From: Escherichia coli
Lineage (GTDB): Bacteria; Pseudomonadota; Gammaproteobacteria; Enterobacterales; Enterobacteriaceae
Assembly (NCBI RefSeq): GCF_003334305.1
Contig: NZ_QOWS01000021.1
DNA length: 64,000 bases
Strand: one strand, 5' to 3'
Below, piece after piece: positions 62,892 to 64,000 of the stretch. The notes under the pieces were generated by a model, which did not search any database, was not told the DNA's origin, and saw nothing but the letters and a program-made list of their open reading frames with translations. Each line of letters starts with the position of its first letter. Positions within the stretch are counted from its first letter, which is position 1. The position numbers and the translations under genes are program-made.

Positions 62892-63383
62892 TTACTCTGC
62901 ACAAGCATCAGGCAATCCAGCTCCAATATTTGTTATAAAATAATGCGTAACATTAATTTCACCAACAAAAAAAAGGTTTACACCATCCCCTTGCCCTGGT
63001 ATCTTACCATATTTACACCACACTTTTTTTGTATCTGGATCATTCTTTGATACGATTTTCGCCACTTGTTCCCTGGCCCTCACTGTCAATGTTTTCTTAA
63101 ACCTACCCCCATCATCATTTGTTAGGGAAAAATAAGAAAAAAAATAATCATCTTCTACATTTGTGTATATTGATATATCCACCGCTACGTGCGGAAAAAA
63201 ATCTGGGAGCCATGTAAAAACTCCATCATTTTCTGGTATTGCCATATAGTTTATGTAATGTTTACTTACAAGAGATTCATCTTTGTATAAATAAAGATAA
63301 GTAATTACGCATAAAACAACAATGATTATAATAGCAAAAATAAATATTATCATCTTTGATAGATTACTTGAGATAGCCAGCAT
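62892..63383 (-). CDS. Putative Rhs-toxin immunity protein (AT-rich, N-terminal TM helix)
   Basis: 163 aa; MIIFIFAIIIIVVLCVITYLYLY hydrophobic N-terminus; start overlaps end of toxin-tip ORF; immediately downstream of Rhs C-terminal domain. Confidence 0.5.
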   Translation of the reverse strand: MLAISSNLSKMIIFIFAIIIIVVLCVITYLYLYKDESLVSKHYINYMAIPENDGVFTWLPDFFPHVAVDISIYTNVEDDYFFSYFSLTNDDGGRFKKTLTVRAREQVAKIVSKNDPDTKKVWCKYGKIPGQGDGVNLFFVGEINVTHYFITNIGAGLPDACAE

Positions 63384-64000
63384 CTTGTAAAGCCTTTATC
63401 GTTTTTTTATGCTCTGGATTAATATAATCACTACATCTATCTGAGCAATCTGTTGTTGATGGACATGTCAACCCATGGTCATTTACAGCCAAGTCTTTTT
63501 TATTATCTTCAATCATTTCAGAATGGGATAGCTTTACTTTTCTGCCGTACATACCGAACAGATTTAACCCGTAATCTCTAATCTCTTTTTCATAACCCAG
63601 CCCTTTCGCCGATCGGCTAACACCAGCGTCATTTAATTTAGACACTCGACAAAATGCCATACAATGGAAAAATTGATCAGTCCCACCTAAATTTAATCTC
63701 TTCATATCTTCATAAGTATCAGATAATATATCCCATGCTCTTTGATGGTTTAGTTGATCTTTTCTTCTTATTAGCGCTACATCTGCGGGACTTAACCCTA
63801 ATGGATCAATACCATTCACCGGATTCAGCGGGTACGCATACAGACTCCATCCCCCCCTCCAGCCCTATCGGGTCCTGAGTGATATACCGCCCCTGCAACG
63901 GATCGTAGTACCGGTTCCGGTTGTAGTACAGCCCCGACTCCTTATCATACTGCTGCCCCGGCAGCCGGTACGGCTGGTGCAGGTGATGCGGGTTCTCCTC
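63364..64000 (-). pseudogene. Rhs-family C-terminal fragment: core end (PxxxxDPxGL-type motif) plus polymorphic toxin tip, interrupted by a frameshift in a homopolymer run; upstream part beyond window
   Basis: Minus-strand translation of 63868..64000 gives ...[33 protein letters not shown], then a 7-C run (63851..63857) shifts frame to ...[32 protein letters not shown]... (ORF 63364..63819). Confidence 0.7.

Follow-up and report, generated by a model that had tools for sequence, protein, structure and literature searches.

Among the families of the Lipocone superfamily that have been recruited as tips of polymorphic toxins is prok-SAA (Burroughs, Nicastro, and Aravind, eLife 2025; PMC12419801), and the same computational study proposes that animal serum amyloid A (SAA) is descended from bacterial lipid-targeting toxins. 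The predicted Lipocone active site has a His on helix H2, a Glu on H3 along with an acidic residue where that helix ends, and an Asp on H4, to which a polar residue further downstream and a capping Gly are added, and all Lipocone immunity proteins are either transmembrane (TM) proteins or lipoproteins, with the toxin TelC cleaving lipid II outside of the cytoplasm (PMC12419801). Here we analyze a 64,000-nt stretch of Escherichia coli DNA (contig NZ_QOWS01000021.1, hereafter the window), one end of which contains the C-terminal tip of an Rhs toxin and, directly downstream, a small AT-rich gene. By sequence, this is the part of the E. coli rhsD element where it ends in its tip and immunity gene, known in K-12 as ylbH and ybbD. 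Tip-immunity pairs of the Rhs kind and the prok-SAA and YbbD_head families are all already described and the architecture of the locus is ordinary; it is of value as the most tractable system in which to test the function of the SAA fold. Neither ylbH nor ybbD is named in the text or supplements of PMC12419801 that were searched, and their assignment to prok-SAA and YbbD_head was found neither in the literature searched nor in the RefSeq records inspected. The overall explanation that we favor, and consider reasonably probable, is that this is an SAA/Lipocone-type Rhs tip with a YbbD immunity protein, where the tip would cleave lipid head groups in the periplasm and the immunity gene would be an orphan in this strain.

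A preliminary description of the locus regarded the tip as an unrecognizable domain and suggested nuclease, deaminase, or ADP-ribosyltransferase folds for it. Profile evidence and a predicted structure instead identify it as a bacterial SAA-like domain of the prok-SAA family of the Lipocone superfamily, and the suggested folds do not apply. The match of the tip alone to Pfam SAA is marginal (E = 4e-4), as is that of a single-sequence phmmer search against PDB (E = 0.32), where a family profile was required, and NCBIfam and PADLOC scans of the tip gave no match. A full HMMER scan of 1.84 billion representatives returned 92 tip homologues, in which the domain is mostly C-terminal and, in the majority, is located within ~60 residues of an Rhs DPxGL-type motif, with proteins as long as 1706 and 1935 aa among them. 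The conserved columns, the profile, and the AF2 model are all derived from an alignment of 53 homologues (A2). Its invariant columns are D39, H43, C44, C48, E70, D100, N104, C116, and C120, those conserved in at least 90% are M30, D73, D96, and G107, and the E. coli tip keeps all of the conserved residues. Pfam SAA is matched individually by 37 of the 53 members (best E = 2e-26), and the A2 profile recovered eight SAA chain sequences from PDB (E = 1.4e-15 to 5e-8). The AF2 model of the tip is all-helical (pLDDT 94.1; helices 2-33, 39-51, 56-78, 90-108, 116-123, and 129-137), and the top seven Foldseek matches to it in PDB are all SAA (probability 1.00, target TM-score 0.69-0.73). The supplementary Prok-SAA list of the eLife 2025 study includes HAU8267270.1 (...DQFFHCSAFCRVSK...VNQHGLSCPSQQNCSDRC...), which is a close relative of the window tip with ~55-60% identity by eye.

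The tip and prok-SAA share a fold of four core helices plus a short fifth, characteristic of the SAW clade, as well as the His, Glu, Asp, and Asn-x-x-Gly residues, and both are C-terminal tips of RHS polymorphic toxins with TM-anchored immunity (PMC12419801). The conserved His of H2, Glu of H3, acidic end of H3, and Asp of H4 are all present, and the Lipocone active-site pattern maps to H43, E70, D73, D96/D100, N104, and G107. What the E. coli tip and its close relatives add to prok-SAA is a C-terminal helix and four invariant Cys, spaced i,i+4 on H2 (C44, C48) and H5 (C116, C120), which look like two disulfide staples, with a metal site as the alternative. Animal SAA (PF00277; PDB 4IP8, 4Q5G, and 7ZH7) is homologous to the tip by the profile (E = 1.4e-15) and fold matches given above, and the two have in common the motif Y-x-x-M-x-x-x-N-x-x-G-x-D-K/Q-Y/F-F-H ... 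R/K-E ... D-S/N-x-x-D-x-x-A-N-x-x-G. The animal protein differs in being a secreted acute-phase apolipoprotein of ~104 aa, compared to 142 aa for the tip, without an Rhs shell, an immunity partner, or the Cys pairs. Matches to "Rhs" in a review of SAA proved to be the reagent name rhSAA and not Rhs proteins.

A word-indexed protein search, in which tip-bearing proteins were no longer than 236 aa, had suggested that the tip never occurs on a full-length Rhs protein, and this was rejected by the full-length in-frame alleles found in DNA searches; the protein search missed them because clustering at 90% hides them. In one predicted protein of 183 aa from an ENA contig (P0002), residues 1-45 of AllS are fused at VALIRRK to the tip, as the result of either an allS-tip deletion or a chimeric assembly. 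Another rhs locus, in E. coli CP029992 (locus L008, 1832..6183), has orphan modules in series: an Ntox16 fragment comes first, an SAA-like tip (56% identical) and a YbbD_head gene are next, and TseH with Imm58 follow. The species thus has no fewer than two SAA-like tip/immunity pairs that have diverged from each other.

The second open reading frame (ORF) is identified by sequence comparison as the cognate, membrane-anchored YbbD_head immunity protein of the tip. It matches NCBIfam NF011298 over residues 1-163 of 163, above the curated cut-off (E = 1.8e-114), and is identical to WP_000879785 in many strains. PF26610 (YbbD_head) matches are precomputed on YbbD homologues and on genes downstream of diverged tips, and the window protein itself gave no PF26610 match in a Pfam profile search. 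The tip-immunity arrangement of the preliminary description is borne out by YbbD_head genes downstream of tips that are 38-56% identical: tip P0032 (56% identical) is followed by a YbbD_head protein of 173 aa and tip P0043 (38% identical) by one of 143 aa. Downstream of tip P0035 is a 168-aa TM protein and downstream of tip P0053 a 160-aa ORF that is uncalled in the annotation and has a signal of the lipoprotein type (lipobox LSGC), and both can be aligned with YbbD. The locus hence has the compositionally distinct tip and the co-varying small downstream immunity gene of an Rhs element. A profile search widens the YbbD family to Hafnia, Xanthomonas, and metagenomes, and since every member starts with either a TM helix (E. 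coli, metagenome, and P0035-linked members) or a lipobox (LAAC or LSGC; Xanthomonas-type and P0043-linked members), the conserved domain is predicted to be extracytoplasmic. In the window protein the N-terminus is the hydrophobic helix MIIFIFAIIIIVVLCVITYLYLY (AF2 helix 6-33). The AF2 model of YbbD is weak (pLDDT 70.1), with three strands, a helix, and three strands, and two Cys (C123 and C161) are conserved in most clades. Compared by description only, Imm-SAA (PMC12419801) has one helix, four strands, and four invariant Cys, while YbbD_head has the two conserved Cys and the longer strand-rich model.

Two further relationships of the immunity gene were considered. The K-12 genes ybfO and ybfC were rejected as a paralogous pair, as the ybfO tip is unrelated and YbfC does not resemble YbbD. 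For the window segment 62895..63383 (minus strand) there is another NCBIfam match, at E = 1e-16 and well short of the cut-off, to NF007301 (PRK09781, an equivalog of 181 aa named "hypothetical protein"), which suggests that enterobacteria have one more paralogous immunity family, different from YbfC.

Table 1. Positions of the features of the rhsD tip and immunity region within the window.
Feature	Position	Strand	Basis or remark
Rhs core 3' end, clipped by the window edge	63806..64000	-	TGA at 63806..63808 after out-of-frame run
7-G run, +1 frameshift that cuts the tip from the Rhs core	63851..63857	-	comparison with K-12
Tip ORF, 151 aa	63364..63819	-	GTG start; protein opens MNGIDPLGL
Demarcation motif, end of Rhs core, autoproteolytic release site	63793..63819	-	here starts the stand-alone 151-aa ORF
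SAA-like (prok-SAA, Lipocone) toxin tip, 142 aa + stop	63364..63792	-	Pfam, profile, AF2, Foldseek
Predicted catalytic H43	63664..63666	-	invariant column
Predicted catalytic E70	63583..63585	-	invariant column
Predicted catalytic D96	63505..63507	-	column conserved in at least 90%
Predicted catalytic D100	63493..63495	-	invariant column
Predicted catalytic N104	63481..63483	-	invariant column
Immunity gene ybbD, intact, 163 aa	62892..63383	-	NCBIfam NF011298
ybbD N-terminal TM anchor, residues ~6-33, followed by YbbD_head ectodomain	63285..63368	-	AF2 helix 6-33
8-T run within ybbD	63137..63144	-	comparison with K-12 and O157:H7

Both ORFs lie where they were first placed (Table 1), the downstream one being AT-rich, with an N-terminal TM helix, and overlapping the tip ORF by 20 nt. 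The tip does follow a DPLGL motif, and at 142 aa (SPADVALIRRK...AGYLK) it is longer than the ~130 aa originally given. The GC content is 0.275-0.385 over both ORFs compared to 0.585 in the Rhs core stub (63800-63999). By our own arithmetic, the chance of 163 stop-free codons at ~33% GC is ~3e-6, and homologues of both products are present in other genera, so neither ORF is a product of chance. The window stops at 64000, such that the visible Rhs core is 180 nt and the Rhs N-terminus is outside of it. The segment from 62400 to 64000 (1601 nt) has three differences from K-12 MG1655, where it is found at the same chromosomal site, is matched at 100% in at least 25 complete genomes, and is matched over at least 80% of its length in 2729 genomes. 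In K-12 the order is rhsD-ybbC-ylbH-ybbD, with ylbH, the tip, as an in-frame orphan Rhs fragment behind rhsD-CT and ybbC, and with ybbD a pseudogene frameshifted by a run of 7 T, whereas the window has a whole ybbD (8 T) behind a tip that 7 G put out of frame. The pair was initially called uncharacterized, which holds for experiments, but the ylbH/ybbD pseudogene pair of K-12 has long been annotated and the immunity protein has both NCBIfam and Pfam families. In the two fully matching genomes that were inspected, CFSAN064035 and E2865, the tip is directly after a full-length rhsD core, which RefSeq treats as a frameshifted pseudogene, with the ORFs listed as hypothetical proteins WP_001013164 and WP_000879785. 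The core stub of the window is identical to the end of the full-length rhsD core in the 100% matches, and one single-nucleotide polymorphism (SNP; G, third base) in the 180 nt agrees with main-core loci and not with the two sampled orphan loci, which is weak sequence evidence for placing the window locus with the former.

That a frameshift disconnects the toxin had been recognized previously, and the comparison locates it to the G run, which has 7 G in the window and 6 G in K-12 and in all in-frame alleles. Past this run the core frame reaches a TGA stop, and the DPLGL-type motif is present but, like the tip, is out of frame with the core, while in alleles elsewhere the tip is in frame with a PxxxxDPxGL core end. 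The upstream frameshift is the sole lesion because the tip keeps all conserved residues and its amino acids are identical to those of the tip of the intact Rhs WP_021529774. The toxin is considered to be disarmed in the window because the tip cannot be loaded into an Rhs shell and the stand-alone ORF has a GTG start with no visible ribosome-binding site and no signal peptide. As judged from its sequence, the window contains a disarmed toxin together with a retained immunity gene. The stand-alone product of 151 aa, or a shorter one from an internal start, could also form a cytoplasmic toxin-antitoxin-like module with YbbD, as for the orphan Rhs toxins of Salmonella, and we consider this to be highly improbable. 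One study does report Salmonella Rhs elements as type II toxin-antitoxin-like modules (PMC7043789), and annotation pipelines call the 151-aa ORF as a protein. Against this, no Shine-Dalgarno-like sequence is found upstream of the GTG start, the tip has no signal peptide while its immunity protein is anchored outside of the cytoplasm, and the four invariant Cys suggest that an oxidizing compartment is needed.

The distribution of alleles was determined from exact-match k-mers in a set of 5426 complete E. coli genomes. Of the 2623 matching genomes, 411 contain the 7G 89-mer exactly, while the 6G 88-mer around the G run is wholly within the conserved core and is not specific to this tip. For the T run, exact 89-mers in 2327 matching genomes gave the intact 8T allele in 530 and the broken 7T allele (as in K-12 and O157:H7), which splits ybbD, in 1413. 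A query constructed with 6G and 8T, such that both genes would be functional, was present at 100% and in one piece in 39 of 40 genomes among the matches listed. Such genomes show that attackers with exactly the window tip exist within the species, an example being AMSCJX02, in which an Rhs protein of 1403 aa has the identical tip in frame and the immunity gene encodes 163 aa. The idea, raised in the preliminary description, that the retained gene might protect against neighbors with the intact toxin is supported to this extent, and protection itself is only plausible. By comparison, in E. coli O157:H7 PV15-279 (locus L003, 2338..7004) the tip is in frame on a 1398-aa Rhs protein and the immunity gene is split by the 7-T run into ORFs of 86 and 57 aa. 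The possibilities for such an apparently armed toxin without intact immunity are a silent locus, residual function of the 86-aa TM and head fragment, or no type VI secretion system (T6SS) being active. In enterotoxigenic E. coli (ETEC) H10407, also among the 6G and 8T matches, the tip/immunity pair is an orphan behind rhsD/ybbC. Recombination within the rhs core can re-arm displaced orphan tips, and the K-12 and AMSCJX02 arrangements look, by analogy, like the before and after of such an event. The orphan tip/immunity arrays of Salmonella Typhimurium are likewise reported to have displaced tips and immunity genes downstream of the main rhs gene (Koskiniemi et al., 2014; PMC3967940).

Both of the lesions that distinguish the alleles are single-base length changes in homopolymers (T7/T8 and G6/G7). 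All four combinations (6G/8T, 6G/7T, 7G/8T, and 7G/7T) are found in complete genomes on near-identical sequence, and because 8T and 7T each occur on both G-run backgrounds, the T run has either changed more than once or been moved by recombination. Across the six loci that were examined, a single SNP haplotype accompanies 7G, marked by a C at the 169th base when counting from 64000 downwards. In E. coli E2863 (locus L014), a 7G/7T genome, the neighboring ybbP is also frameshifted, and hence some of the homopolymer alleles may be sequencing errors and the counts are approximate. That the four combinations occur on almost identical sequence, with both T-run lengths on both G backgrounds, might indicate that the two runs are slippage switches by which toxin delivery and immunity are turned on and off within populations. 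Such phase variation seems to us very unlikely, as slippage is not expected to be efficient in runs as short as 6-8 bases, 7G goes with the single SNP haplotype in the examined loci, and some alleles, as the frameshifted ybbP of one 7G/7T genome illustrates, may be assembly errors.

We propose the following mechanism for the locus. In strains with an in-frame allele, the Rhs shell would carry the tip into a neighboring cell, probably via a T6SS, and the tip's site of action would be the periplasm, on the inner membrane's outer face. Periplasmic action is predicted because of the topology of the immunity family with its TM and lipobox anchors, because the four invariant Cys suggest an oxidizing compartment, and because Lipocone immunity proteins are TM proteins or lipoproteins and TelC is extracytoplasmic. 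There the tip would sever a phosphate-linked head group from a lipid carrier, such as lipid II or another undecaprenyl-linked intermediate, or from a phospholipid, and in this way block envelope synthesis. By analogy, head-group cleavage is the most likely chemistry of the tip, and the model for it is TelC-TipC, the lipid II phosphatase and immunity protein of the type VII secretion system (T7SS) of Streptococcus intermedius, which belong to the same superfamily according to PMC12419801 and are extracytoplasmic with a membrane-anchored immunity protein. TelC differs from the tip in belonging to another Lipocone clade, in having an LXG/T7SS delivery domain, and in being from a Gram-positive organism, and it is absent from the fold-search match lists of the tip. 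From its anchor in the inner membrane, YbbD would face the periplasm, bind the tip directly, and block it, and in the strain of the window, where the toxin would not be deliverable, the locus would work only as orphan immunity against E. coli neighbors that fire the same tip.

Several observations weigh against this proposal. For the enzymatic step the basis is homology to two distant Lipocone families, TelC and PTDSS, and in the literature searched there was neither a measured activity for any prok-SAA toxin nor an experimental test of any bacterial SAA-like toxin. The sNxxGR motif of H4 is VNDHGL in the E. coli tip, with N104 invariant, G107 conserved in at least 90%, and the Arg replaced by Leu. 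As to T6SS delivery, the N-terminus of a full-length homologue (L005) matches DUF6531 (E = 2.8e-17), while its match to PAAR is marginal (E = 0.11), though it does read GKPAARQGD. A fold search with the weak YbbD model returned no related solved fold. A promoter and terminator scan of the locus found promoter-like sites to be no commoner than in shuffled sequence, which bears on expression of the orphan immunity gene. In addition, most E. coli have a broken immunity gene, some of them next to a full-length toxin that is in frame, and strains with both genes broken occur, all of which argues against strong current selection on the pair.

Some of these same observations favor a reading in which the whole locus is an inert relic in this strain, the toxin being dead and the immunity ORF silent, AT-rich, horizontally acquired DNA whose frame is kept by recent common descent. 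Both genes are pseudogenes in K-12, the exact broken 7T sequence outnumbers the intact 8T (1413 versus 530 genomes), neither gene is whole in some strains, promoter signals do not exceed chance, and the association of 7G with a single SNP haplotype in the six loci would fit one mutation passed on by descent. That the tip has the amino acids of an intact Rhs tip and that the immunity protein, the same as WP_000879785 in many strains, is otherwise unblemished argue against a relic, as do the genomes with both genes intact (the 39 of 40 among the matches listed), which provide a selective arena for immunity. We regard the relic reading as somewhat doubtful, and it keeps appreciable weight.

The other main alternative accepts the same identity for both proteins and concerns how the tip kills. 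BteO, a T6SS effector of Bacteroides fragilis, is the structurally closest characterized bacterial effector and is reported to be a non-enzymatic OmpA binder (PNAS 2025), which is a further point against cleavage of lipid head groups. By analogy, the tip might kill without catalysis by binding the periplasmic peptidoglycan-binding domain of OmpA-family proteins, loosening the link between the outer membrane and the cell wall, with YbbD acting as a decoy in the same groove. BteO, of the BteO-BtiO pair (B. fragilis GA3; PDB 9UU0), has on the other hand only 15% identity to the tip and no profile match at E<=10, carries an N-terminal TM of its own, and does not form the tip of an Rhs protein. Moreover, the residues required for BteO toxicity, H144, E168, D187, and D191, share the His/Glu/Asp-x3-Asp pattern of the proposed Lipocone site and, because of this, the BteO data would fit an enzyme equally well. 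The invariance of the His, Glu, Asp, and Asn across tips that are only 25-30% identical is also more typical of catalysis than of a binding surface, and YbbD does not have an OmpA-like fold, as far as can be seen from its weak model. We therefore consider OmpA binding to be unlikely and retain head-group cleavage as the preferred activity of the tip.

The locus puts an SAA-like toxin and its immunity protein in the highly tractable E. coli, where natural armed, disarmed, immune, and non-immune alleles differ by single bases. SAA is a major acute-phase protein, the primary biochemical function of which is debated. The questions that the locus opens are whether the SAA fold is an enzyme acting on lipid II and undecaprenyl carriers or a binder of OmpA, and whether orphan immunity is protective in E. 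coli populations. For annotation, the gain is a meaning for ylbH and ybbD and for the hypothetical proteins WP_001013164 and WP_000879785. A more speculative idea, which we think improbable, is that the E. coli tip, BteO, and animal SAA share one ancestral activity directed at the Gram-negative envelope, either binding of OmpA domains or a cleavage of lipid carriers that has been overlooked in BteO and SAA. If true, human SAA would owe its antibacterial, OmpA-directed behavior to descent from a bacterial Rhs/T6SS toxin, and ylbH/ybbD would be the simplest system in which to demonstrate it.

The genes flanking the locus, gcl, allR, allA, allS, mnmH, and a ylbG remnant, are the same as in K-12. 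Between mnmH and the immunity gene (61970..62607) are the ylbG helix-turn-helix/transposase remnant (61970..62377, plus strand) and a short ylbI pseudogene region, and in ETEC H10407 an IS66-family element is inserted between ybbD and the ylbG remnant. The allS gene is intact in the window (308-aa ORF, 59801..60727) and is annotated as frameshifted in the otherwise 100%-matching CFSAN064035.

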